Sequence record: OZ346205.1
Length of the DNA stretch: 64,000 bases
Strand: one strand, 5' to 3'
DNA from: a phage
This document shows, in pieces, positions 2,250-61,555 of the stretch. Made by a program: the position numbers and the translations under genes. Below the pieces are notes generated by a model, which was not told the DNA's origin, ran no database searches, and worked only from the letters and a program-made list of their open reading frames with translations. Positions within the stretch are counted from its first letter, which is position 1. Every line of letters begins with the position of its first letter.

Positions 2250-4317
2250 ATTTATGGCATCTGCATACAACCGTTTCGGTGAGCCAAACCCGAAAGCAAC
2301 TAAGTATAAAAGTGGGGGAAGTGTGAAACGAGACTATCGTGATGAAAAAGAGGTTGAAACTGTAGAGACTGTTTTAGAAAATACTAAAATCGTCCCTGTC
2401 CCACAACAAAATATCGGTCTGATGGCTGCACAATATTTTGGTGTGCGATCAGCATTATCCCAAGAAGATGGTGTGACAGTCACTGCAACATATTTCCCAT
2501 ATTACGACCGCTACGGAAATCTGTCCGGTTTCAAAAAGCGTGACTGGACGATTCCTAAAGAGCAAAGAGGCCATTTCTCCGTTGTTGGCATAGTAAAGGC
2601 TAACTCTCAGATGTTTGGTCAAAAGCTGTGTGCATCTTCCAACAACCGTAAGCAGATTAACGTTTGTGAGGGAGAAGGTGATGTTATTGCAGCATGGCAG
2701 GCTGCATATCAGATACAAGTAAAAGGGATTCTCACCAACGCTAAAGCCCCGGCAAAGGTGAAACAGTGGGCTAAAGAGGTCCAGGACGGGATCGATGCAG
2801 TTATCAACGGTGGCGATCTGGCAGGAAAACCATGCCTGCCTTTTGTTGGAATTAACTGTGGATGTGCAAACGCAGTAGATACTTTTGCAAACAATGAGAA
2901 GTTTATCCGTAGCTATGGAACAGTTGTGCTGGCAATGGATAACGATGCAGCTAACGAGGTAGAGAAGCAAAAACACGTCATTAAAGGTGTTGAGGCCACG
3001 CACAATATCGCAGCATTTTTGATGGCTGATAACGTTTACCACGTAGAATACCCTGGTGAAGTAAATGACCCTGACGGGGTAAAAGATATCCGTGACATGC
3101 TGAAGGCTAAAAAGCTGGAAGATATTGTCAACATGTTCCGGCACCCTGTTAAATATGTGCCTGATGCTGTGTCGGATTTAGAAGACTTCTCTATCGAGTC
3201 TTTGCGGAAAAAGACTTCCAACGGGGTAGATATCAGCGCAGAGTTCCCAAAACTGCAAAAAATGCTAAAAGGCTTGCACAAAGGGACACTCGTAATGCTT
3301 ACAGGGCCATCAGGGGGCGGTAAAACAACTGTAGCTAAAAAACTGGAACATTGTATTGCAAGATACCTAATGGACCCGACATGCCCGAAGGCTGATGACT
3401 ATGAAGAGGATGATCGTCTATGTATGATCCATCTTGAGGAGGACCCGGAGGAAGCAATTAACTCCTTGTATGCAAACCAGTTAGGGTTTGATGTTAAAGA
3501 GTTTGTTGAAGATCCTAGCCAGTTTTTAACTGATCAAGAACACGCAGAGATTCACCAATCATGGGCAAAAGCTGGAAAAATCAAAGTGTTCAAACATTTC
3601 GGATCTATTCCGGTGGACGAGTTGATTACCAAGCTTAAGCAAATGGTTTGCCTGTACCATTGCCGTTATATTGTGCTGGATCACCTGTCCATGGTAATTT
3701 CAGGGCTTAATGTTAAGGATGAGCGAAAAGAACTGGACATGGCTATGACTCAGCTGGCTGCGTTTTGTAAGCAGTTTAACGTGTTTATCTTAGTGATCGC
3801 TCACCTCAAACGTACAGAGATTGTGCCTCCTAAGGACAAGGATGGTAACCCGTTACCTTTCTGGTATCCTGTGCGAAAAGAGAATTTGCGAGGATCGGCG
3901 GGGCTTGAACAGTTGAGTTGGGTAGTCATAGGTGTCGAGGCCGAAGAAATGGTGGATCGTTCTCGTGGACGTGTCCGTCTGGTAGGTCTTAAAAACCGTC
4001 CAGCAAAAACTTTAGGTATTGCTGACACTTTGGTTATGGACCCGCACACAGGTAAGTTCCATGATGCCAGTAATTGGTACTGGGACAAAGAAATGCAAAT
4101 GTTTACAGACGGAGAAGGTGGGGAGGTTGTTTGGAGACCTCAGGCTATGTTTGAGGATCAGGAGCATGCAGTTGTAGAAACACCTATGGGCAAGGTTGTG
4201 GCTGATAAGGTTGTAACTCCTACTGTTAAGCCTGTTGACACGCAGGAAGACCTCCAGTACGATGATCCATCCTCTGACCCGGTCCCTGGTTTTGAGGATG
4301 ATGAAACGCCTTTTTAA
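2239..4317 (+). CDS. DNA primase-helicase (TOPRIM + DnaB/gp4-like helicase)
   Basis: TOPRIM-like CEGEGD and MDNDA; Walker A GPSGGGKTT; Walker B IVLDHLS; acidic tail ...EDDETPF. Confidence 0.75.
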   Translation: MGSKFMASAYNRFGEPNPKATKYKSGGSVKRDYRDEKEVETVETVLENTKIVPVPQQNIGLMAAQYFGVRSALSQEDGVTVTATYFPYYDRYGNLSGFKKRDWTIPKEQRGHFSVVGIVKANSQMFGQKLCASSNNRKQINVCEGEGDVIAAWQAAYQIQVKGILTNAKAPAKVKQWAKEVQDGIDAVINGGDLAGKPCLPFVGINCGCANAVDTFANNEKFIRSYGTVVLAMDNDAANEVEKQKHVIKGVEATHNIAAFLMADNVYHVEYPGEVNDPDGVKDIRDMLKAKKLEDIVNMFRHPVKYVPDAVSDLEDFSIESLRKKTSNGVDISAEFPKLQKMLKGLHKGTLVMLTGPSGGGKTTVAKKLEHCIARYLMDPTCPKADDYEEDDRLCMIHLEEDPEEAINSLYANQLGFDVKEFVEDPSQFLTDQEHAEIHQSWAKAGKIKVFKHFGSIPVDELITKLKQMVCLYHCRYIVLDHLSMVISGLNVKDERKELDMAMTQLAAFCKQFNVFILVIAHLKRTEIVPPKDKDGNPLPFWYPVRKENLRGSAGLEQLSWVVIGVEAEEMVDRSRGRVRLVGLKNRPAKTLGIADTLVMDPHTGKFHDASNWYWDKEMQMFTDGEGGEVVWRPQAMFEDQEHAVVETPMGKVVADKVVTPTVKPVDTQEDLQYDDPSSDPVPGFEDDETPF

Positions 4318-17443: not shown

Positions 17444-17848
17444 ATGAATAAGAACGTACGCCGCATCATGAACGAACTGGCAAACGATGAAAAAATTATT
17501 GACATGCATTTGATCAACATTTGCCGCCGTTGTGTAACATACAACAACCGCGCCGCAAAAGCGCGTGAGATGAACGCAAAAGGCACCTTAAAGCCATTCC
17601 AGGTGGTGGTAAAGGCCATTAAAGATGTAACTAATACGGCAAACCAGGTACAGGGGAACACCAACGAGAGTACCAATATTGATCCGGCTTACATCATGAA
17701 ACGGATCCGGACCTGCAAGAACAAAGAGCAAGTGTATAATGTCATAGACTGGTTGGATTCTATGGGCGATGTGGTGTACAATAGATTCTCGGCAGCTATT
17801 GAGATCCAGCTTGACAGGTTAGACGGTAAAGTACTTAAAACTTACTAA
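17444..17848 (+). CDS. hypothetical protein
   Basis: AAAGGA RBS. Confidence 0.55.
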   Translation: MNKNVRRIMNELANDEKIIDMHLINICRRCVTYNNRAAKAREMNAKGTLKPFQVVVKAIKDVTNTANQVQGNTNESTNIDPAYIMKRIRTCKNKEQVYNVIDWLDSMGDVVYNRFSAAIEIQLDRLDGKVLKTY

Positions 17849-17859
17849 ATTTATTTTTA

Positions 17860-17883
17860 GATGGCCTTGACTCCAGGGCCATC
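17860..17883. repeat. palindromic element GATGGCC-N10-GGCCATC (copy 1)
   Basis: Directly after stop codon; loop holds TTGACT; followed by AATAAAGTAAAT. Confidence 0.6.
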
Positions 17884-17928
17884 AATAAAGTAAATTAATC
17901 TCAGCTAAGCGAAAAAGGGGGCTTTAAG

Positions 17929-18048
17929 ATGAGCACTACACGCCAATACACAAAGGTAACTATTATCGCCTGCGTTGTCGGTTACATCCTGGCGCAAATG
18001 TTAATGAGTAGCGCTAACAGTTTTGCAAAATTTTTCTTAAATTTTTAA
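17929..18048 (+). CDS. small hydrophobic protein (39 aa)
   Basis: AAAAGGGGG RBS 7 nt before ATG; predicted single TM segment. Confidence 0.4.
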   Translation: MSTTRQYTKVTIIACVVGYILAQMLMSSANSFAKFFLNF

Positions 18049-18076
18049 TTGACAAGCTAACTTAGATTGATATACT
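18049..18076 (+). promoter_or_regulatory. sigma70-like promoter
   Basis: TTGACA - 16 nt - TATACT. Confidence 0.55.
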
Positions 18077-18127
18077 TAAACACGTAAACGGGAAAACTTC
18101 CCAGAACACACAAAAGGAGAAAACACC

Positions 18128-18469
18128 ATGACTACTATGGCCGCCGCAGAAAAAGCTATTCAGATCGCCGCACTGAAAAAACAGATCGCAGACCTTGAGA
18201 ACAAGATCGATAACTTTGAAATCGACGAGGACAAGTACGACGAAAACTATGATGAATGGTTAGACGAGATCTACGGCGAAATTATGATCGGAAACATTTC
18301 TTTTCTTCCGTCGCGTATCCTCAAGGAGCTAGATCCTATCGCTTACCGCTGCGGATTTAGCGACTACATCGACAGCCTGGATATTGAGGACGATGAAGAA
18401 TACCAGGAATTACAGACAGAGTTAGAAGAAGCAAAAGAAGAGCTTGCAGAACTGGAAGAAAACGAGTAA
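18128..18469 (+). CDS. hypothetical acidic protein
   Basis: AAAGGAGA RBS; leader hairpin GGGAA-AAC-TTCCC at 18090. Confidence 0.55.
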   Translation: MTTMAAAEKAIQIAALKKQIADLENKIDNFEIDEDKYDENYDEWLDEIYGEIMIGNISFLPSRILKELDPIAYRCGFSDYIDSLDIEDDEEYQELQTELEEAKEELAELEENE

Positions 18470-18480
18470 GATTATTTTTA

Positions 18481-18504
18481 GATGGCCTTGACTCCAGGGC
18501 CATC
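18481..18504. repeat. palindromic element GATGGCC-N10-GGCCATC (copy 2)
   Basis: Same sequence as copy 1, directly after stop of 18128..18469. Confidence 0.6.
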
Positions 18505-18558
18505 AATAAAGTAAACTTTATACTGTTAACACTGAACTAATGCATAGGAGTTAAAACC

Positions 18559-18804
18559 ATGGCAGCACTAATCACCAAATATTATGCCCCTACCAACACC
18601 AAAAGCGCCCGTATCATGGTAAAAGGCTTCGGACGTAAAAAGGTGTACACCTGGGATTATGCCTTAGACACGGAAGACAACTACACCAACGCGATGACCG
18701 ATTTTATTAATGATCTGAACACGCGGATCTTGACAAATTATAAAATTACCGATATTGCCTATATAGGGGAAGGCGGGATCTGTTTTGTCGGTATCGTCAA
18801 ATAA
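18559..18804 (+). CDS. hypothetical protein
   Basis: TAGGAG RBS. Confidence 0.5.
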   Translation: MAALITKYYAPTNTKSARIMVKGFGRKKVYTWDYALDTEDNYTNAMTDFINDLNTRILTNYKITDIAYIGEGGICFVGIVK

Positions 18805-18879
18805 GCTGTTTTTTCGGTGGTCCTGGTAGCAGGGCCATCTATAAAGATAGTTTATCAATACAATGAAAGGAGAAAGTAC

Positions 18880-19233
18880 ATGATCAGCGGGGCAAGTTTT
18901 ATTATTGGCGCTATTGCTACGGCTTTAATTGTAAACAAGATCCAATCTAAAAACGAAAAAGATAGCAACGCCCTTACAGAATACCCGTTTTGGGTATTCA
19001 ACGACAATGAAGACTATATTATCAAGTACAAGAATGAGAAGGGCGACCAGGTAACACCGCGACCGATCCCGGCTTACAAGATGCAAGAAACACTATACCG
19101 CCTAAAGGCTGGAGGCGCAAAAATCGTAGACTTTTGGGGATACGATCACACAGATCAGGAAGTTATAAAGCGCCGTATCCGGGCTATTCAGGCCAATATT
19201 GAAGTTAGCAAGGGGGGAATATATGAAGATTAA
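18880..19233 (+). CDS. membrane-anchored protein
   Basis: ORF 18817..19233; ATG 18880 after AAAGGAGAAAG; N-terminal TM helix. Confidence 0.5.
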   Translation: MISGASFIIGAIATALIVNKIQSKNEKDSNALTEYPFWVFNDNEDYIIKYKNEKGDQVTPRPIPAYKMQETLYRLKAGGAKIVDFWGYDHTDQEVIKRRIRAIQANIEVSKGGIYED

Positions 19234-19420
19234 TTTTGAGAAGATTGTAAAGCGATCTCATGCTTCCGAAGAGCTGCCGGAACGCCGCCAGCGCAACAAT
19301 AAACTGAATAAGCCAAAAAGATTTGGGAAGATCTGGCGGAATCATTATGATCGCAAATTACCGGGCCTGCTTTTGGAACGTGAACGACAGGCGGAACGAT
19401 ACCGCCACAAAGGCAAATAA
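19223..19420 (+). CDS. hypothetical basic protein
   Basis: ORF 19199..19420; ATG 19223 after AAGGGGGG. Confidence 0.45.
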   Translation: MKINFEKIVKRSHASEELPERRQRNNKLNKPKRFGKIWRNHYDRKLPGLLLERERQAERYRHKGK

Positions 19421-19428
19421 CAACCAAC

Positions 19429-19456
19429 GCCCCGCCATTGTGCGGGGCTTTTTATT
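19429..19456 (+). terminator. rho-independent terminator
   Basis: GCCCCGC-CATTGT-GCGGGGC followed by TTTTTATTT. Confidence 0.65.
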
Positions 19457-19601
19457 TCTATCCTACGAATAGCGCCCCTGGTTGGCCCTGTAAGCGCCAA
19501 AAAGGCCCCACCTATGCAATCGCCCACCTTTAACCTGAAAACATCGCTTAGGGCCGTTTTATGGCGTTAAAAATATCATTGACAGTGATTTTATTTAAAG
19601 C

Positions 19602-19629
19602 TTGACATCTTAAACAGGTTAGCTATACT
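19602..19629 (+). promoter_or_regulatory. sigma70-like promoter
   Basis: TTGACA - 16 nt - TATACT. Confidence 0.5.
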
Positions 19630-19663
19630 AACCACATCAAAGAGAGAGAAAGGAGTAAACGCC

Positions 19664-19924
19664 ATGCGTAAATTAAAAAATTTTGATAAAGTTGATGTTG
19701 TCCTGAATAATTTTTACTACTGCAACAACAAGGCCATTTGGTGGCGTGATAGTTCCACCGATAAAGTCAAGGCGCGCTTTCTCCAGGGGCACTGGCAAGG
19801 CCGCCCAGTGATTAAAATCATGGGGCAATTGGTAGCGTTTAAAAATTGCCGCCGTGTTGATGACGTTGAAGAGATCTTGAATATTTTACGCCACAATAAT
19901 TTAAAAAATAGTGTTGACAAGTAA
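19664..19924 (+). CDS. hypothetical protein
   Basis: AAAGGAG RBS. Confidence 0.55.
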   Translation: MRKLKNFDKVDVVLNNFYYCNNKAIWWRDSSTDKVKARFLQGHWQGRPVIKIMGQLVAFKNCRRVDDVEEILNILRHNNLKNSVDK

Positions 19925-19941
19925 ATCTCAATAAGTATACT
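19914..19941 (+). promoter_or_regulatory. sigma70-like promoter
   Basis: TTGACA - 16 nt - TATACT, overlapping 3' end of upstream gene. Confidence 0.5.
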
Positions 19942-19951
19942 TAAGCACACA

Positions 19952-19970
19952 GGCGGGAAGTTTTCCCGCC
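19952..19970 (+). promoter_or_regulatory. 5' leader hairpin
   Basis: GGCGGGAA-GTT-TTCCCGCC (same arms as 17406) then ACTAACAAAGAAAATAGGAG. Confidence 0.45.
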
Positions 19971-19998
19971 ACTAACAAAGAAAATAGGAGAAAATATC

Positions 19999-20622
19999 AT
20001 GACCACCGTTAACATTACCACAGGTTGCAATTTATCTTTCGACGTGCTGACCGACGAACAAAAAGAAAAAGCTGTTGAAATGGTCCGCGAAAGAGAAGAA
20101 CACAGCGGGGATAACTTTTTTGCAGAAAGTGTAATTGAATACTATAAAGAATATGTTTTTCCAGAGTACGGGCTTGAAGATACCAAGGTACAGTGGTCCG
20201 GCTTTTGGTGTCAAGGCGACGGCGCATCAATTAGCGCTGAAAATGTAAACTTAGAAAAATTCTTGCGTAAGGTTAAAGCGCTTACAAAATTTCGCTCAAT
20301 TAGACACTTGTTCGGCACAATGCACGATGGCGAACTATCAGCCAGCGTTGAACGTATCCCGTTTAGCCATTATCATCACGAAAACACAATAGGCGGGTGC
20401 ATCGATACCAACTGGCTAGACCTGACCACCAAGCAAGAGGATAAAATTGAAGAGCTGGAAGAGCTGATCACCGAGACGGTACGGGAGCTATCCCGCAAGG
20501 TTTACGTAGACCTGGAGCAGGCCTATCTTGAACAATTCACTACCGAAAACCTGATCGGCCTTATCGAGGCCAATGATTGGCGGTTTGATGTGGATGAGTA
20601 TGGCGAGATGACTTTTTCATAA
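19999..20622 (+). CDS. hypothetical acidic protein
   Basis: TAGGAGA RBS; 207 aa. Confidence 0.55.
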   Translation: MTTVNITTGCNLSFDVLTDEQKEKAVEMVREREEHSGDNFFAESVIEYYKEYVFPEYGLEDTKVQWSGFWCQGDGASISAENVNLEKFLRKVKALTKFRSIRHLFGTMHDGELSASVERIPFSHYHHENTIGGCIDTNWLDLTTKQEDKIEELEELITETVRELSRKVYVDLEQAYLEQFTTENLIGLIEANDWRFDVDEYGEMTFS

Positions 20623-20630
20623 ATAAAGTG

Positions 20631-20658
20631 TTGCAATAACCTAAAAACCTGCTATATT
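20631..20658 (+). promoter_or_regulatory. sigma70-like promoter
   Basis: TTGCAA - 16 nt - TATATT; leader hairpin GGGGCAA...TTGCCCC at 20668. Confidence 0.45.
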
Positions 20659-20711
20659 AAAACTCAAGGGGCAAGACGTTTGCCCCCACACAAAACAAAG
20701 AGGAAAACATC

Positions 20712-21092
20712 ATGAAAAACACTACTAAAGCTATTGACACCGTTATGTTTAACCTGGTTACCTTTCGCGAGGATATGAAAGATCTTCCACGTGAAACAGT
20801 GTGCGATCACATTGAAAACTATCGCAAACTAATCAAAGAGTTGCCTTTAAAACGTGACCAGTATGCGGCTAACGCCATGCTTAATGCCATGATCAAAAAG
20901 ATGATTCAGTGTGATTTAACTCTGGCCTATGACTATGCGGGTGGTCGTTTTGCAGTATACAATCAGCCCGTGCCCGGTATGGGCACCACCGAAGAATTGC
21001 ACGCGCTCAATCTAAAACAAGACGTATGGGATAACATGCCCCGCGTGGTGGTGTGGGCAGAAAGCGGAAAGATTTACGGCGATAATTTTTAA
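20712..21092 (+). CDS. hypothetical protein
   Basis: AAAGAGGA RBS. Confidence 0.55.
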   Translation: MKNTTKAIDTVMFNLVTFREDMKDLPRETVCDHIENYRKLIKELPLKRDQYAANAMLNAMIKKMIQCDLTLAYDYAGGRFAVYNQPVPGMGTTEELHALNLKQDVWDNMPRVVVWAESGKIYGDNF

Positions 21093-21156
21093 TCAGGTAA
21101 CAGGCGGCATATTTGCCGCCTTATTGTTAAACAGAGTTGCAAAAGAGGTACATAGA

Positions 21157-21528
21157 ATGGAATTTATTATTTTGGCTGTAGTAGTTGCCTTGTTCAACGC
21201 CTGGATCGCTGGCAAGATGGGTAGATCCGCCTTTTTATGGTTTATTATATCTATTTTCCTGGGGGTGGTTGCAACTATTGTACTTGTTATCCTTGCAATT
21301 GTTGACAAGGGGAATAATAGAAAGGGTAAAGTATTTTCAGACCTGTACGACGCTCAAACGTTTGTCAACGCCTATTATAGTGATCTTCCAGTCTCCCTAC
21401 GCTGCAGCCTGGCACAACAAGTTTTCGATGAGGCTAAAACCAGAGATCAAGCCCATGAGATATGTTTAACTGAGGCGGATCGCCTATTTGAGAGGAATAG
21501 AAAATATGTGGGCCAACCGTTTAAATAA
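21157..21528 (+). CDS. membrane protein (2 predicted TM helices)
   Basis: ORF 21124..21528; ATG 21157 after AAAGAGG. Confidence 0.5.
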   Translation: MEFIILAVVVALFNAWIAGKMGRSAFLWFIISIFLGVVATIVLVILAIVDKGNNRKGKVFSDLYDAQTFVNAYYSDLPVSLRCSLAQQVFDEAKTRDQAHEICLTEADRLFERNRKYVGQPFK

Positions 21529-21751
21529 TGCCACGTTAATTAATCCCTTTAGTGAAGATTTGAAGCCAGCCGCCTGGCGTGATGGATTCAATAACGAACG
21601 CTTTATTTTCAAGCCTGATCTTGAGGAATTTTATAACAATGGATCGAACAACAGCGGAGATAATTTTTCTTGGGATGTGCGTGGTGATGGTACTCCTGGG
21701 GGCCATTGTAAACCACGTCACTACTACCAGGAGGAAAGAGGGAGACGATGA
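21506..21751 (+). CDS. hypothetical protein
   Basis: ORF 21488..21751; ATG 21506 after GAGAGGAA. Confidence 0.45.
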   Translation: MWANRLNNATLINPFSEDLKPAAWRDGFNNERFIFKPDLEEFYNNGSNNSGDNFSWDVRGDGTPGGHCKPRHYYQEERGRR

Positions 21752-21867
21752 CAACCAAGGATAAGCCCCGTACCGATAAGGCGCGCCGGGTTATGGTATG
21801 GCTTGAGATCATCGCCCTTGAAATATTGCTAGGCGTAGGGATGTACTTTATCGCTGTAAGTAACTAA
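21748..21867 (+). CDS. small membrane protein (39 aa)
   Basis: AGGAGGAAAGAGGGAG RBS; ATGA overlap with upstream stop; hydrophobic C-terminal half. Confidence 0.45.
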   Translation: MTTKDKPRTDKARRVMVWLEIIALEILLGVGMYFIAVSN

Positions 21868-21871
21868 GAGC

Positions 21872-21902
21872 GGCCCCCGATCATGGGGGCCTATCTTTTA
21901 AA
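21872..21902 (+). terminator. rho-independent terminator
   Basis: GGCCCCC-GATCAT-GGGGGCC then TATCTTTTAAAAAATTTTT. Confidence 0.6.
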
Positions 21903-22005
21903 AAATTTTTCTTCCGGGGTGTTGCAATCCGGTCCGGAATGTGGATAATAACAATCAACGGGGAGCTAATCCCCACCACCACAAAAACCAGAAAGGAGAA
22001 ACAAA

Positions 22006-22206
22006 ATGAGCAACAATATCCGCGTTATTAACTTCAAAAAAGAAGAAAAAATTGCCGTGCTGATTGACGGTCAAGAAATCTTCAAGGGCGACTATGAAGA
22101 TCATCAAACGGCGATTAGTATCACTCGCGTGATTGGTTATCATAATTTCTACCCCCAAGGCGCTGAGGCAGCAGTTAAACGAATCAAAGAGATTGTAGGC
22201 CTGTAA
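22006..22206 (+). CDS. hypothetical protein
   Basis: AAAGGAGA RBS; leader hairpin GGGGA-GCTAA-TCCCC at 21960. Confidence 0.55.
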   Translation: MSNNIRVINFKKEEKIAVLIDGQEIFKGDYEDHQTAISITRVIGYHNFYPQGAEAAVKRIKEIVGL

Positions 22207-22218
22207 AATTTATTTTTA

Positions 22219-22242
22219 GATGGCCTTGACTTCAGGGCCATC
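22219..22242. repeat. palindromic element GATGGCC-N10-GGCCATC (copy 3)
   Basis: After stop of 22006..22206; loop TTGACTTCAG. Confidence 0.6.
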
Positions 22243-22299
22243 GATAAAGTAAATTTAAACCCTGTTAAAATACCACGCAGTTAACAAGGAGTGATAGAC

Positions 22300-22616: not shown

Positions 22617-22967
22617 ATGAAAGTCAAACTATATTACCTTAATGAGCTTAACCCCCTTGCCCAGGTCCGCGCCCTAGCTAATACCTTGATTTGTGAGAAA
22701 TCTGTATATTGTGTTGAGCTTAACGCCATGCGTGAACGTCTCAAAGGTGGTTACTTTGACATCCATGCTGCAATCAACGGCCTGAATATGGAATTTATAC
22801 GCTTACGTAACAGCCGCCGGAATCTGGCAAGAATGGAACAAGATCCGGCCCACCTTCGTAAGCTGGTTATTGAAAATCATCTGATGTTTAATGCCGAGGG
22901 TGATTATTACCATTTTCACCGCAAACGCTGGTACCGTGGCGGCAATACAGGCAAGAATGCAAAATAA
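22617..22967 (+). CDS. hypothetical protein
   Basis: ORF track; coupled to upstream gene. Confidence 0.5.
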   Translation: MKVKLYYLNELNPLAQVRALANTLICEKSVYCVELNAMRERLKGGYFDIHAAINGLNMEFIRLRNSRRNLARMEQDPAHLRKLVIENHLMFNAEGDYYHFHRKRWYRGGNTGKNAK

Positions 22968-23005
22968 GGCCCCTAGCAGGGCCTGCAGCAATATAATCAC
23001 ATAAA

Positions 23006-23036
23006 GGCCATGCGGTTGCATGGCCTTTATTATTTT
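23006..23036 (+). terminator. rho-independent terminator
   Basis: GGCCATGC-GGTT-GCATGGCC followed by TTTATTATTTT. Confidence 0.65.
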
Positions 23037-39246: not shown

Positions 39247-41562
39247 TTATAGTGCACAGCTTTCGCAATACGGATCTTCAACTGAACTATCTGCAATCAA
39301 AGGATAGTTCTTTCTGGTTTCATCTTCAGCCTGTTTCTTGGCATGAAGTTCCTCTGCCAAGGAGTCACCAGCACCAACCCTAGAGTTTAAATAATACCAT
39401 GTCTTCATCCCGAATTTAGTGGCACGGATAAGGTACCCTAACTGCTCCTTCATTGAAATTTTACCATCTTTCAACTTGGTGTAGTCTATGTATAAATCCG
39501 CGCTGATTGCCTGACCTGTGAATTTTTGAATCACGGCATACATATCGATCATGTCGTTAGTATCAACGTCCCAAGCCGAGGTGTAATACTCTTTCAACTC
39601 ATCATAGTCAGGAACGATAAACAGCACCTGCCCTTGTGGCGACTTTTTAAAGATAATGTGCTCACGGACAGGATAAACCCCGTTAGTGGTGTTTGTTGCC
39701 AGCGAAGAGCTTTCATTAGGCATATATGCTTCAAGAACGCTATTACGTAGCCCACCATTCTCAATGATTTCTTTACGTAACCCTTCCCAATCCTGTTTAA
39801 GAGAAGGATCTTTCACCACGCTATCGACCTCTTTGTTATAGGTGTCGATTGGTAACCAACCTTCTGGATATTTTGTTTTATGCATCCACTCGCAGACACC
39901 ACGCTCTTTTGCCAACCGTAAACTTGCCTTATGCAAGCTGTAGCTGTGAAGTTCTGCAAGATCGTGAACGAGCTGTTTACTTTCAGGAGACCCGTAAGTA
40001 ACCTTGTGGCTGGCAATAAAATGTGCAACATTGGTAAGGCCAACCCCGATGGATCTGCGTTTTTTAACTGTGCTTTCCATATTTTCATACGGATATGTCA
40101 TGATTTCCATAACATTGTCAATCATAAGCACCGTATAGTATGCAACATCCTCATACTCCTCTGGAGTAACCCTCCCAGCTACAAGAGATGACAGGAAGCA
40201 CAATGCAACCTCTCCATCATCAGCATCGTACTTGAAGATATTACGCATATCTGAATAGCCTTTTGTCGGGAGGGCTATTTCTGCACACAGGTTGCTTGAA
40301 TAGATCACATCTTTAAAAGGTGTATGTCTATTCATCTCATCTGTCCAGTATACGTACAGCCTTCCCACCTCAGTGCGCTGCGTGATCAGTTCAACAGCAA
40401 GATCTCTAGCTCGGATCCATGTTTTAGGAATACTGTCATCTTTAGCAATACGATCAACCTCTGCATCAAACTCCTCCATAGACATGGTGAAGATACCCTC
40501 ATGCAGTTGAGGCGCGTGCTTATAAGAAACAAGCATCCAATCTAAATTCTTAGCCACACGGTTGATAAACGACCTATTAATACCGATGGAGTAGTCCATG
40601 GTGTTGATTCTTTTTGAAGCAACAGTCATAGGGTTTCTCAAACGGATTAGCTCATCAATCTGCGGGTCCAGTGCAAGGAATGATACTGTTGCAGAACCAC
40701 CACGTGATTGTTGTCTGTTCTCCTTAACCCCAGCATCAATACCTCGATAATATGGAATCTTACCCATATGTTTAATAGTGTTACCACGAACACCATCGCC
40801 TGCAGATCTTGAGGATAAGTAGTAGCCGATACCTGCTTGGTTAACCGTCATTGTGTACGCAACTTCACGTGCCACACCAATAGATTTTGCTGTATCGTCA
40901 GCTTTTATTACACAACAAGATGCATACCCTGTCTTACCTGTGCGCAGCCCGTTTAAGTACGGTGTTGGGGCATTGATCTTTAAGTCGGACAGATAAGTGT
41001 ATAATTTTACAACATCGTTGATACGACGTTCTTTCGGCATATTCTTCATGACAGCCATTGCTATCCCCATAAACATCATCTGGGGAGATTCAAACAAGGT
41101 GTCTTTAAGAGTATCCTTGATCCCGTATTTGTCGCGAAACTGTTTAAGGACTGCATAGCCATAACCGAGATCTTTACTGTGGTCAATAACAGCGTCTAAA
41201 GTGTTTAGCTCGGTAAAGCTATAACCCATATCCTCCCAATAACCTTTCTCAACCATGTCATTGTAAAATGATGGTAAGGAAGGGATCTTTGTAAACCCTC
41301 CAAAAGCCTCTTTATAGATCTGACCAATAAGAACACGACCAGCCATACGGGAATGTGCTTCGTCTTTACGGCTAACACAAGAGTCTATAATAGCTTGGTT
41401 AACTTCTTTGGTTGTACATCCATCATACAACCGCTTGTAGGCATCCAGTGCAATATGTGACCAATTGCCGTTACCATCGTCACCGAAAATAGCTGCCTTA
41501 TTTAAACGTTCTGGATCGAATGCCACTTCACATCCGTTGCTTTTAATTACCTTGGTGATCAA
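39247..41562 (-). CDS. nrdA: ribonucleotide reductase class Ia large subunit
   Basis: N-terminal ATP-cone (VIKSNGCEVAFDPERL); 771 aa. Confidence 0.9.
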   Translation of the reverse strand: MITKVIKSNGCEVAFDPERLNKAAIFGDDGNGNWSHIALDAYKRLYDGCTTKEVNQAIIDSCVSRKDEAHSRMAGRVLIGQIYKEAFGGFTKIPSLPSFYNDMVEKGYWEDMGYSFTELNTLDAVIDHSKDLGYGYAVLKQFRDKYGIKDTLKDTLFESPQMMFMGIAMAVMKNMPKERRINDVVKLYTYLSDLKINAPTPYLNGLRTGKTGYASCCVIKADDTAKSIGVAREVAYTMTVNQAGIGYYLSSRSAGDGVRGNTIKHMGKIPYYRGIDAGVKENRQQSRGGSATVSFLALDPQIDELIRLRNPMTVASKRINTMDYSIGINRSFINRVAKNLDWMLVSYKHAPQLHEGIFTMSMEEFDAEVDRIAKDDSIPKTWIRARDLAVELITQRTEVGRLYVYWTDEMNRHTPFKDVIYSSNLCAEIALPTKGYSDMRNIFKYDADDGEVALCFLSSLVAGRVTPEEYEDVAYYTVLMIDNVMEIMTYPYENMESTVKKRRSIGVGLTNVAHFIASHKVTYGSPESKQLVHDLAELHSYSLHKASLRLAKERGVCEWMHKTKYPEGWLPIDTYNKEVDSVVKDPSLKQDWEGLRKEIIENGGLRNSVLEAYMPNESSSLATNTTNGVYPVREHIIFKKSPQGQVLFIVPDYDELKEYYTSAWDVDTNDMIDMYAVIQKFTGQAISADLYIDYTKLKDGKISMKEQLGYLIRATKFGMKTWYYLNSRVGAGDSLAEELHAKKQAEDETRKNYPLIADSSVEDPYCESCAL

Positions 41563-58203: not shown

Positions 58204-58277
58204 ACCAGTAAAAACTTAAATATCTGTACTATAAGGATTCGTATGTTTTATGTTCACTCTGGAACAGAGGTTAGTAA

Positions 58278-58360
58278 CTGTCCGTGATACGGACACTACT
58301 GTCCGTCACGCGGACACATCTGTCCGTAATACGGACACTAACTGTCCGTGATACGGACAC
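58278..58360. repeat. iteron array: 4 tandem palindromes TGTCCGT-N5-ACGGACA
   Basis: Copies start at 58278, 58299, 58320, 58342 (21-22 bp period); followed by an A/T-rich stretch and further inverted repeats to about 58470. Confidence 0.8.
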
Positions 58361-60742: not shown

Positions 60743-60817
60743 GCCCTGTTAGCTTAGTGGATAAAGCAGCGGCCTTCTAAGCCGTTGACACTGGTTCGAG
60801 TCCAGTACGGGGTGCCA
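60743..60817 (+). tRNA. tRNA-Arg (anticodon UCU)
   Basis: Cloverleaf by eye: acceptor GCCCTGT/ACGGGGT, anticodon loop CTTCTAA, T-loop TTCGAGT, encoded CCA. Confidence 0.8.
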
Positions 60818-60821
60818 AATT

Positions 60822-60908
60822 GGGGAGTTATCCCGTAGAGGTAGCGGTGTAGACTGTAAATCTATTGTCATTGCGACTCGGGTGGTTCGACTCCACCACT
60901 CCCCACCA
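60822..60908 (+). tRNA. tRNA-Tyr (anticodon GUA)
   Basis: Acceptor GGGGAGT/ACTCCCC, anticodon loop CTGTAAA, long variable arm, T-loop TTCGACT, CCA. Confidence 0.75.
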
Positions 60909-61022
60909 AATTTATATTTTTAGATGCATAAATAATACAGATAATGGCATTGATATTTATCGTCGTTTATACTAGTCACTAACTGCTCGAAAATCAGTGT
61001 CATTATCAGTATAATTTATAAA

Positions 61023-61113
61023 GGAGGGTAGGGAGCAATGGTGCTCAAGCGGTATTGAAAACCGTCCCGTTGAGGATGACTCGATGATGGTTCGATTCCA
61101 TTACTCTCCGCCA
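61023..61113 (+). tRNA. tRNA-Ser (anticodon UGA)
   Basis: Acceptor GGAGGGT/ACTCTCC, anticodon loop ATTGAAA, long variable arm, T-loop TTCGATT, CCA. Confidence 0.65.
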
Positions 61114-61211
61114 CATTGTTGACCTTGTAATTAAGCGAAAGCCGGAAGCAGAACCGGATTATCAAATGTTACAGTCGTCATCGCCGACTAGCAACATGGT
61201 CAACATACTGA

Positions 61212-61310
61212 GCTAGGTAAGCCCTTTGGCAAGGGCGAGGATTTTTAATCCTGAAAATAGACGAGGTAGTCGTTGAATACATAGGTGGTTCGATTCCATC
61301 ACCTAGCACC
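61212..61310 (+). tRNA. atypical tRNA-like gene (99 nt; anticodon loop TTTTTAA, UUU?)
   Basis: Acceptor GCTAGGT/ACCTAGC, D-arm GCCC...GGGC, T-arm GGTGG-TTCGATT-CCATC, but 30-nt extra region and imperfect anticodon stem. Confidence 0.4.
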
Positions 61311-61315
61311 TTTTT

Positions 61316-61391
61316 GCTGATGTAGCACAATCGGTAGTGCAATTGATTTGTAATCAATAGGTTGTAGGTTCAAGTCCTGCCATCAGCACCA
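61316..61391 (+). tRNA. tRNA-Thr (anticodon UGU)
   Basis: Acceptor GCTGATG/CATCAGC, anticodon arm ATTGA-TTTGTAA-TCAAT, CCA. Confidence 0.8.
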
Positions 61392-61392
61392 A

Positions 61393-61467
61393 GGCCCTGT
61401 AGCTGGAAGGTTCAAGCAAGCGACTCATAATCGCCAGACGGTGGTTCAATTCCACCCAGGGCCACCA
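61393..61467 (+). tRNA. tRNA-Met (anticodon CAU; could be Ile-lysidine type)
   Basis: Acceptor GGCCCTG/CAGGGCC, anticodon loop CTCATAA, T-loop TTCAATT, CCA. Confidence 0.75.
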
Positions 61468-61478
61468 AATAGTAAATA

Positions 61479-61555
61479 CTCCGCGTAGCTCAGCTTGGTA
61501 GAGCGCCTGATTTGGGATCAGGAGGTCGAGTGTTCGAATCACTCCGTGGAGACCA
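61479..61555 (+). tRNA. tRNA-Pro (anticodon UGG)
   Basis: Acceptor CTCCGCG/CGTGGAG, D-arm GCTC...GAGC, anticodon arm CCTGA-TTTGGGA-TCAGG, T-loop TTCGAAT, CCA. Confidence 0.8.

Follow-up and report, generated by a model that had tools for sequence, protein, structure and literature searches.

Four repeated modules follow early genes of an rV5-like phage

We analyzed a stretch of 64,000 nucleotides (nt) from a phage (sequence record OZ346205.1, one strand; this whole stretch is called the window) with regard to a hairpin-forming element that is repeated between its early genes. The 6 kb around the copies of this element share 94–97% identity with over 100 coliphage genomes of the genus Vequintavirus (rV5-like). 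They form an early block of small genes that have no known function and all lie on the + strand of the window. Four open reading frames (ORFs) end at the element, i.e., the annotated rV5 genes gp189, gp187, gp186 and gp174, and the copies are named m1, m2, m3 and m4. The upstream gene products comprise 134, 113, 81 and 66 amino acids (aa), respectively, and fall into PHROG families without a known function. The TAA stop codons preceding the modules are located at 17846–17848, 18467–18469, 18802–18804 and 22204–22206.

The core of the modules can be described as GATGGCC-N10-GGCCATC. With at most two mismatches allowed, this motif has four matches in 64 kb, all on the + strand. Exact copies are found at 17860–17883, 18481–18504 and 22219–22242, and a copy with two mismatches at 18816–18839. 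The mean number of matches in 100 dinucleotide shuffles was 0.15, and none of the shuffles reached four. The original prediction, made from the DNA letters, had described near-identical modules after the stops ending at 17848, 18469 and 22206, which is borne out by this search. It had also named a degenerate copy at 18818; such a copy exists, begins at 18816 and retains the whole fold without TTGAC. The modules and their parts as obtained from RNA folding are as follows (CM, covariance model):

17845–17900, + strand: module m1, 56 nt; −22.7 kcal/mol, z −6.1; CM 79.3 bits; match to the structural descriptor given below
17848–17857/17887–17896, + strand: m1 lower stem, with 5′ internal loop 17858–17859 and 3′ internal loop 17884–17886
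17860–17869/17874–17883, + strand: m1 upper stem, with tetraloop 17870–17873
18466–18521, + strand: module m2; −21.1 kcal/mol, z −5.2; CM 78.8 bits
18468–18478/18508–18518, + strand: m2 lower stem, with upper stem 18481–18490/18495–18504, loop 18491–18494 and 3′ internal loop 18505–18507
18801–18856, + strand: module m3; −27.6 kcal/mol on the + strand vs. −9.2 kcal/mol on the − strand; CM 71 bits
18801–18813/18843–18855, + strand: m3 lower stem, with upper stem 18816–18825/18830–18839 containing two G·U pairs
18826–18829, + strand: m3 loop GUAG, with 3′ internal loop UAU at 18840–18842
22204–22259, + strand: module m4; −24.7 kcal/mol, z −7.6; CM 77.9 bits
22206–22216/22246–22256, + strand: m4 lower stem, with upper stem 22219–22228/22233–22242, loop 22229–22232 and 3′ internal loop 22243–22245

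All modules form the same two-tier hairpin in the sense RNA

As + strand RNA, all four copies fold into one identical two-tier hairpin of 20–23 pairs. The G/C-rich upper stem (GAUGGCCUUG/CAGGGCCAUC) has 10 bp including one U·G pair and is closed by a tetraloop. The palindrome of the original prediction is hence real, although RNA folding gives it a stem of 10 instead of 7 bp and a loop of 4 instead of 10 nt. The T-rich 5′ flank pairs with the A-rich 3′ flank to form a lower A/U stem of 10–13 bp. Both tiers are separated by an asymmetric internal loop, which in all four copies leaves 2 nt of the 5′ strand and 3 nt of the 3′ strand unpaired. The stop codon of the upstream gene sits at the base of the lower stem, and the upper stem begins 11–12 nt past this stop codon.

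Fold energies of the sense strand were between −21.1 and −27.6 kcal/mol, with z values of −5.2 to −7.6, and the module hairpins are among the most stable of the early region. For the antisense fold we obtained −14.5 and −9.2 kcal/mol, i.e., it was 8–18 kcal/mol weaker than the sense fold. The supposedly degenerate m3 is the most stable copy: it carries many changes and every pair is kept, by G·U wobbles in the upper stem and by two-sided changes in the lower stem.

An unfiltered covariance-model search of the whole window returned only the four modules, together with weaker antisense echoes. When positions 15–25 kb were scanned against Rfam at a permissive E-value, only chance-level matches appeared; m4, for instance, reached 23 bits for rhtB, where the cut-off is 55 (E 2.9). 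A sliding 60-nt fold of the whole window was uninformative and produced many unrelated hairpins; an explicit two-tier descriptor derived from the modules was used instead. It requires 9–12 pairs in the upper stem, at least four of them G-C, a loop of 3–7 nt, an internal loop and 8 or more pairs in the lower stem. Within the 64 kb of the window, this descriptor matched only the four modules, with no match on the − strand and one match in 20 Markov shuffles, and it was less specific in unrelated G/C-rich contigs. A Dcm site (CCWGG) was also considered as a conserved feature of the stem and was dropped, as m4 of the window lacks such a site.

Base pairing of the sense RNA is conserved among relatives

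For comparison, modules were gathered from 14 related loci, and 29 distinct copies from 11 loci and the window could be aligned gap-free. The comparative data were GenBank phage records; a protein-anchored IMG/VR search gave only two rV5-like contigs. In the alignment of 29 copies, 96.7% of the cells fall into standard pairs of the proposed structure, compared with 35–55% in slid controls with the 3′ partners shifted by one to three columns. None of 500 column shuffles matched the observed pairing or covariation score. Two-sided changes occur at four pairs of the lower stem (5-51, A-U/G-C; 6-50, U-A/C-G; 8-48; 9-47). All four varying pairs of the upper stem change via G·U only. Alignment columns 14, 41 and 42, which belong to the internal loop, are invariant, and substitutions between genomes cluster in two places, the tetraloop and the foot of the lower stem. 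Moreover, the upper stem is invariant within each site, while neighboring codon wobble positions and spacers vary. Taken as a whole, the modules show much higher conservation than these wobble positions and spacers. The first module of a distant relative (locus L003) has a 5-nt loop and an extra A, by which the spacing of the −35- and −10-like boxes described below becomes 20 nt; it retains the two-tier fold with −22.6 kcal/mol. From the pairing, the covariation, the changes via G·U only and the fold kept in L003, we therefore place the selected feature in the sense-strand RNA structure, rather than in a duplex-DNA operator or a promoter.

The core of the modules is a palindrome in the DNA as well, and the copies recombine, as seen from chimeric m1/m2 modules and from loop variants shuffled among positions (see below). 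Both would fit a DNA-level element, i.e., a cruciform, a palindromic operator bound by a dimeric protein, or a recombination or mobile repeat without a role in RNA. We regard such an element as very improbable. At seven pair positions G·U is used in some or all copies, which corresponds to A·C mismatches on the other strand, and the antisense fold is the weaker one. In m3, the letters of the half-sites differ and the pairing is kept. All copies have a single orientation relative to transcription, and recombination between 50-nt direct repeats requires no special function. The palindromic operator of the original prediction was thus rejected in view of half-sites that are not conserved as sequence, strand-asymmetric fold energies and G·U pairing.

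BLAST searches with the module sequence gave matches in 121 records, exclusively from Vequintavirus. Within the Vequintavirinae, the hairpin scan covered this genus only. For the proteins upstream of m1 and m3, no syntenic homologues were found outside the genus Vequintavirus. Phage phi92, a member of the Stephanstirmvirinae and thus of a different subfamily, has genes homologous to rV5, and the first 50 kb of its genome contain no such hairpin on the coding strand. Also, the modules are not listed in the rV5 genome paper, its promoter and terminator tables or the reference record. Among the relatives, we noted 17 records labeled 'Campylobacter phage' (MG0656xx) that are near-identical to Escherichia coli Vequintavirus genomes, with MG065666.1 marked UNVERIFIED; these labels probably reflect contaminants or mislabeled hosts.

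The modules share their architecture with RNase III sites of phage T7

To compare the modules with a known system, we folded the neighborhoods of ten RNase III cleavage coordinates of the T7 genome with the same tool. The dot-bracket structures of R0.5, R1.1, R4.7 and R18.5 were almost superimposable on the modules. The T7 sites and the modules have in common a 10-bp upper stem, a loop of 3–5 nt, a 2/3 internal loop and a lower stem of 9–12 bp. In R1, R0.5, R4.7 and R18.5, the T7 cleavage coordinate is the third unpaired nucleotide past the upper stem. Applied to T7, the module-derived descriptor gave eight matches on the + strand and none on the − strand, and recovered six of the ten known sites (R0.3, R0.5, R1, R1.1, R4.7 and R18.5). 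The remaining two matches are a two-tier hairpin present in both copies of the terminal repeat, at 94–119 and 39871–39896. To our knowledge, this hairpin is not a listed RNase III site.

The likeness extends to the context. Both kinds of element lie in the sense mRNA of a virulent coliphage, between co-directional genes. As in the modules, the lower stem holds a stop codon in T7 R0.5, R4.7 and R18.5, which is that of gene 0.4, 4.5 and 18, respectively. R1 overlaps with the sigma-70 promoter C and R18.5 with promoter E, and several phage promoters are found next to R sites. The internal-loop letters UA/AAU of the modules are those of T7 R1, and UC/UAU of m3 are those of T7 R1.1. In contrast, there is no sequence homology, with CUCAAGGUC...GGCCUUUAUGAUU in T7 compared with UUUUAGAUGGCC...GGCCAUCAAUAAAG in the modules, and the proximal box reads G-C / A-U / U-A in the modules and A-U / A-U / G-C in T7. 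Unlike T7, the phage carrying the modules is a large myovirus that relies on host RNA polymerase. It has four copies only, of which three are near-identical and exchange sequence.

About 400 nt downstream of m3, a 65-aa ORF (19223–19417) matches Pfam PF08200 (bacteriophage T7 protein 1.1) above the curated cut-off, with an E-value of 2.3e-10. Gene 1.1 of T7 sits directly downstream of the RNase III site R1.1. We take this homologue only as a hint of gene traffic between the T7 group and the rV5-like group.

RNase III determinants and predicted cleavage positions

Determinants for cleavage are available from a minimal R1.1 substrate, in which an 11-bp helix separates the scissile bond from the tetraloop (PMC1540722). 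Its distal box consists of a U-A pair followed by a stringently needed U-G pair, and the substrate also has a middle box (PMC1540722). The optimum for the proximal box is G-C; A-U or U-A; A-U; A-U or U-A; a G-C pair prevents binding when placed at position 2 and catalysis when placed at position 4 (PMC1540722).

The modules provide 20–23 pairs on the transcribed strand, i.e., about two helical turns (at least 20 bp). Their 10 pairs plus a non-canonical A×A or C×U add up to the 11-bp distance, when counted as in natural R1.1 and R1. An asymmetric internal loop, which goes along with cleavage of one strand, is present as the 2/3 loop in the four copies and in all relatives. Viewed from the loop, m1, m2 and m4 show the closing G-C pair, then U24-A31 and then U23·G32 as a canonical distal box, at the two positions of the R1.1 box; in m3 this box is U-A / C-G, as in T7 R0.5 and R18.5. 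Position 2 of the proximal box is A-U (A17-U38) and hence no antideterminant. Position 4 is an A×A mismatch (C×U in m3), as in T7 R1 and R1.1. This register predicts the following scissile bonds:

17886/17887, + strand: predicted cut in m1 (…GGCCAUC AAU / AAAG…), from the register with T7 R1, R0.5, R4.7 and R18.5 and the 11-bp rule (PMC1540722)
18507/18508, + strand: predicted cut in m2, from the T7 register and the 11-bp rule
18842/18843, + strand: predicted cut in m3 (…GGCCAUC UAU / AAAG…), from the T7 register, with UC/UAU as in R1.1
22245/22246, + strand: predicted cut in m4, from the T7 register and the 11-bp rule

With somewhat better than even confidence, our analysis favors the view that the modules are T7-style RNase III processing and 3′-stabilizing hairpins in the early mRNA. 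We infer RNase III as the enzyme, the position of the cut and the effect on mRNA stability. An RNA processing site had been among the suggestions of the original prediction, and it agrees with the sense-strand structure and the T7-like anatomy. Because no U-tract follows the hairpin, host RNA polymerase would read through the module. RNase III would then bind the helix and cut it once, on the 3′ strand at the internal loop, after positions 17886, 18507, 18842 and 22245, respectively. The upstream mRNA would retain the 10-bp hairpin and a 3-nt tail at its 3′ end, which would protect it from 3′ exonucleases, and the downstream cistron would be freed with a short, unstructured, A/U-rich leader. 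In three of the copies, a weak sigma-70-like promoter would have its start point about 17 nt past the cut.

Several observations weigh against this assignment. The proximal box deviates from the optimum of the minimal substrate at two positions, with U-A in place of G-C at position 1 and G-C in place of A-U at position 3; T7 R1 itself has C-G at position 3. The conserved U·G pair and the TTGAC letters can equally be explained by promoter constraint, and any stable hairpin could protect a 3′ end without RNase III. Since divergence is low (about 90–97%) and the copies exchange sequence, the alignment holds few independent compensatory events. The T7 cleavage coordinates used for comparison were checked solely by their exact fit to the folds. 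In the literature, we found no transcriptome or end-mapping study of a Vequintavirus.

A sense-strand RNA structure immediately past stop codons, with a stability among the highest of the early region, could also act independently of RNase III. Like stabilizers of the repetitive extragenic palindrome (REP) type, it could block 3′ exonucleases, cause a polymerase pause or disturb ribosome release at the neighboring stop codon, or it could be a site for a phage RNA-binding protein. REP hairpins and bacterial interspersed mosaic elements (BIMEs) of E. coli resemble the modules in being repeated imperfect palindromes past stop codons and an RNA barrier to 3′ exonucleases. In contrast to the modules, REPs are chromosomal, clustered and found in both orientations, and have no two-tier architecture with a fixed loop; moreover, we saw no sequence similarity between REP/BIME elements and the modules. 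A mode of action of this type leaves unexplained the 2/3 internal loop, the covarying lower stem, the ruler of 10 bp plus tetraloop, and the UA/UG pairs of the distal box, and we consider it unlikely.

Post-transcriptional processing of early mRNA is textbook knowledge for T7; we know of essentially no description of it for the large rV5-like myoviruses. The modules represent a known kind of signal that is unannotated in this phage group, with a sequence confined to Vequintavirus. Phages of the rV5 type are widely isolated and present in phage-therapy and biocontrol collections. If RNase III processing applies, the modules offer four exact cleavage coordinates and an explanation of how discrete, stable messages arise from densely packed early ORFan genes. 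They would then also be compact 56-nt insulator parts, unrelated in sequence to R0.5 and R1.1, and an RNase III substrate design would have been reached or shared by unrelated coliphages.

Three of the modules contain a promoter-like sequence

The original prediction had pointed to TTGACT within the presumed loop and to TAAA(C/T)T located 18 nt downstream. Both boxes are present in three copies, where a consensus scan found these sigma-70-like matches:

17867–17896, + strand: TTGACT, 18 nt, TAAATT in m1 (9/12 consensus positions)
18488–18517, + strand: TTGACT, 18 nt, TAAACT in m2 (9/12)
22226–22255, + strand: TTGACT, 18 nt, TAAATT in m4 (9/12)

Over 18 kb, the promoter consensus scan gave 73 such sites vs. 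41 by chance. The clear early promoters of the same phage uniformly have TTGACA and a spacer of 16–17 nt and are stronger than the module matches. Modules m1, m2 and m4 may contain an embedded weak sigma-70 promoter. This is compatible with RNase III processing and is not a shared feature of the modules. The regulated promoter that was originally suggested is not supported as a function common to all copies, as m3 keeps the hairpin without a −35 box.

Promoter and hairpin are combined in the promoter early stem-loop elements (PeSLs), in which a sigma-70 promoter with AT-rich DNA upstream is joined to a stem-loop that contains G-T pairs and may overlap the −35 box (PMC2839356). PeSLs occur in ORFan-rich regions, in the interval from a stop codon to the following start codon, and bring about recombination; in T4-like phages, their stem-loops reduced the expression of a downstream reporter (PMC2839356). 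The modules resemble the PeSLs of T4-like phages (PMC2839356, PMC4122927) in their position from stop to start, the AT-rich stretch, the sigma-70-like boxes, the G-T pairs and the recombination. They combine a stable stem-loop and, in three copies, promoter boxes between a stop and the next start codon, and their copies recombine around ORFan cassettes, as the m1/m2 chimeras show. PeSLs differ in that they occur in a different phage lineage and have very strong promoters that match the consensus, as opposed to 9/12 positions, an 18-nt spacer and no promoter at all in m3. Also, the stem-loops of PeSLs, which have been described as terminators, differ from one another in sequence and position, whereas the modules have a fixed two-tier geometry without a U-tract.

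The modules might accordingly be PeSL-like composites, in which the promoter TTGAC(T/A)-18-TAAA(C/T)T starts the next gene, the T-rich stretch is UP-like and the hairpin attenuates upstream transcripts. We give this possibility clearly less credit than RNase III processing, with which it can coexist. Apart from the boxes in m1, m2 and m4 and the resemblance to the published description, it is consistent with the relatives, which keep TTGAC and TA...T and change only the sixth base of the −35 box (T or A, where A is consensus) and the fifth base of the −10 box. The density of promoters in the neighborhood, about one per one or two genes, fits as well, and so do the chimeric m1/m2 modules in five related genomes from which the two intervening genes are gone. 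On the other hand, m3 has the full structure and no −35 box, so a promoter is not the common denominator, and the promoter matches of the other copies are limited by a G/C-rich spacer of 18 nt. In L003, the fold is kept at a promoter spacing of 20 nt. The rV5 paper's tables and the reference record annotate the neighboring promoters P195A, P192 and P186, and the modules are missing there. Strong attenuation is not expected without a U-tract, and a PeSL-like composite leaves the lower stem and the fixed internal loop unexplained.

A strong G/C hairpin right past stop codons, together with the reduced reporter expression caused by PeSL stem-loops, could speak for a non-canonical intrinsic terminator that ends transcription past each gene. 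We find this hardly credible. Neither the upper stem nor the whole hairpin is followed by a T-run on either strand, in agreement with the original prediction that the modules are not canonical terminators. The terminator-like scan detected canonical terminators nearby (19429, 21102, 21872 and 23001) and none of the four modules. With hairpin tails of AAUAAAGUAAA, UAUAAAGAUAG and GAUAAAGUAAA, i.e., no U-tract, an intrinsic terminator was rejected. Moreover, the genes past m3 have no promoter of their own: m3 ends at 18855 and the next start codon follows at 18880, which leaves no room for one. RNA polymerase must therefore pass the m3 hairpin to reach the two genes that precede the terminator at 19429.

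We further noted a perfect 13-bp palindrome at 23001–23030, ATAAAGGCCATGC-GGTT-GCATGGCCTTTAT, with a T-run behind it. This palindrome, probably a bidirectional terminator, folds equally on either strand. It has a GGCCAT core in common with the modules, and a second hairpin lies just upstream at 22967–22984.

Module copies recombine with each other

In five loci (ECP26, ime, phiWec189, magaca and an IMG/VR contig; labeled L002, L016, L020, L021 and L022), the gene for the 81-aa product directly follows that for the 134-aa (or 131-aa) product. The genes for 39 aa and 113 aa (17929–18048 and 18128–18469 in the window; cassette 17901–18465) are missing from these loci. Instead, a single chimeric module is found that consists of the m1 5′ flank and the m2 3′ flank, e.g., at 3262–3317 of L016 and at 213–268 of L002. 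The two-gene cassette between m1 and m2 thus looks like a presence/absence polymorphism caused by recombination between the repeats. Since the chimeric modules differ in their loop and flank variants and their carriers belong to different sub-lineages, the data suggest more than one recombination event. In addition, the positions at which the loop variants ACTC, ACTT and ACAC occur are reshuffled from phage to phage.

These findings support a further role of the modules as joints of modular exchange, similar to PeSLs, although any 50-nt direct repeat could act as a recombination joint. The polymorphism marks the repeats as break-points of modular gene exchange. As a more far-reaching idea, which we put forward only tentatively, the modules could be portable cassettes of stop codon, RNase III hairpin and promoter that serve both as mRNA ends and as recombination joints for the gain and loss of early ORFans, and would thereby merge the logic of T7 R sites and T4 PeSLs. 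Their design might have converged on what E. coli RNase III recognizes, or it might have come through an exchange with T7-like phages that also included the gene 1.1 homologue nearby.

Other features of the window

Two features outside the early block were noted. A non-coding segment at 58275–58360 contains four tandem units of 21–22 nt, each with the palindrome TGTCCGT-N3/4-ACGGACA. With about −35 kcal/mol, its hairpins are very stable whichever strand is folded, and the segment resembles an array of iterons or operators, or an origin. Seven tRNA genes are clustered on the + strand at 60743–61555, with calls for Arg-TCT, Tyr, Ser, an odd 4-base anticodon, Thr, Met and Pro.

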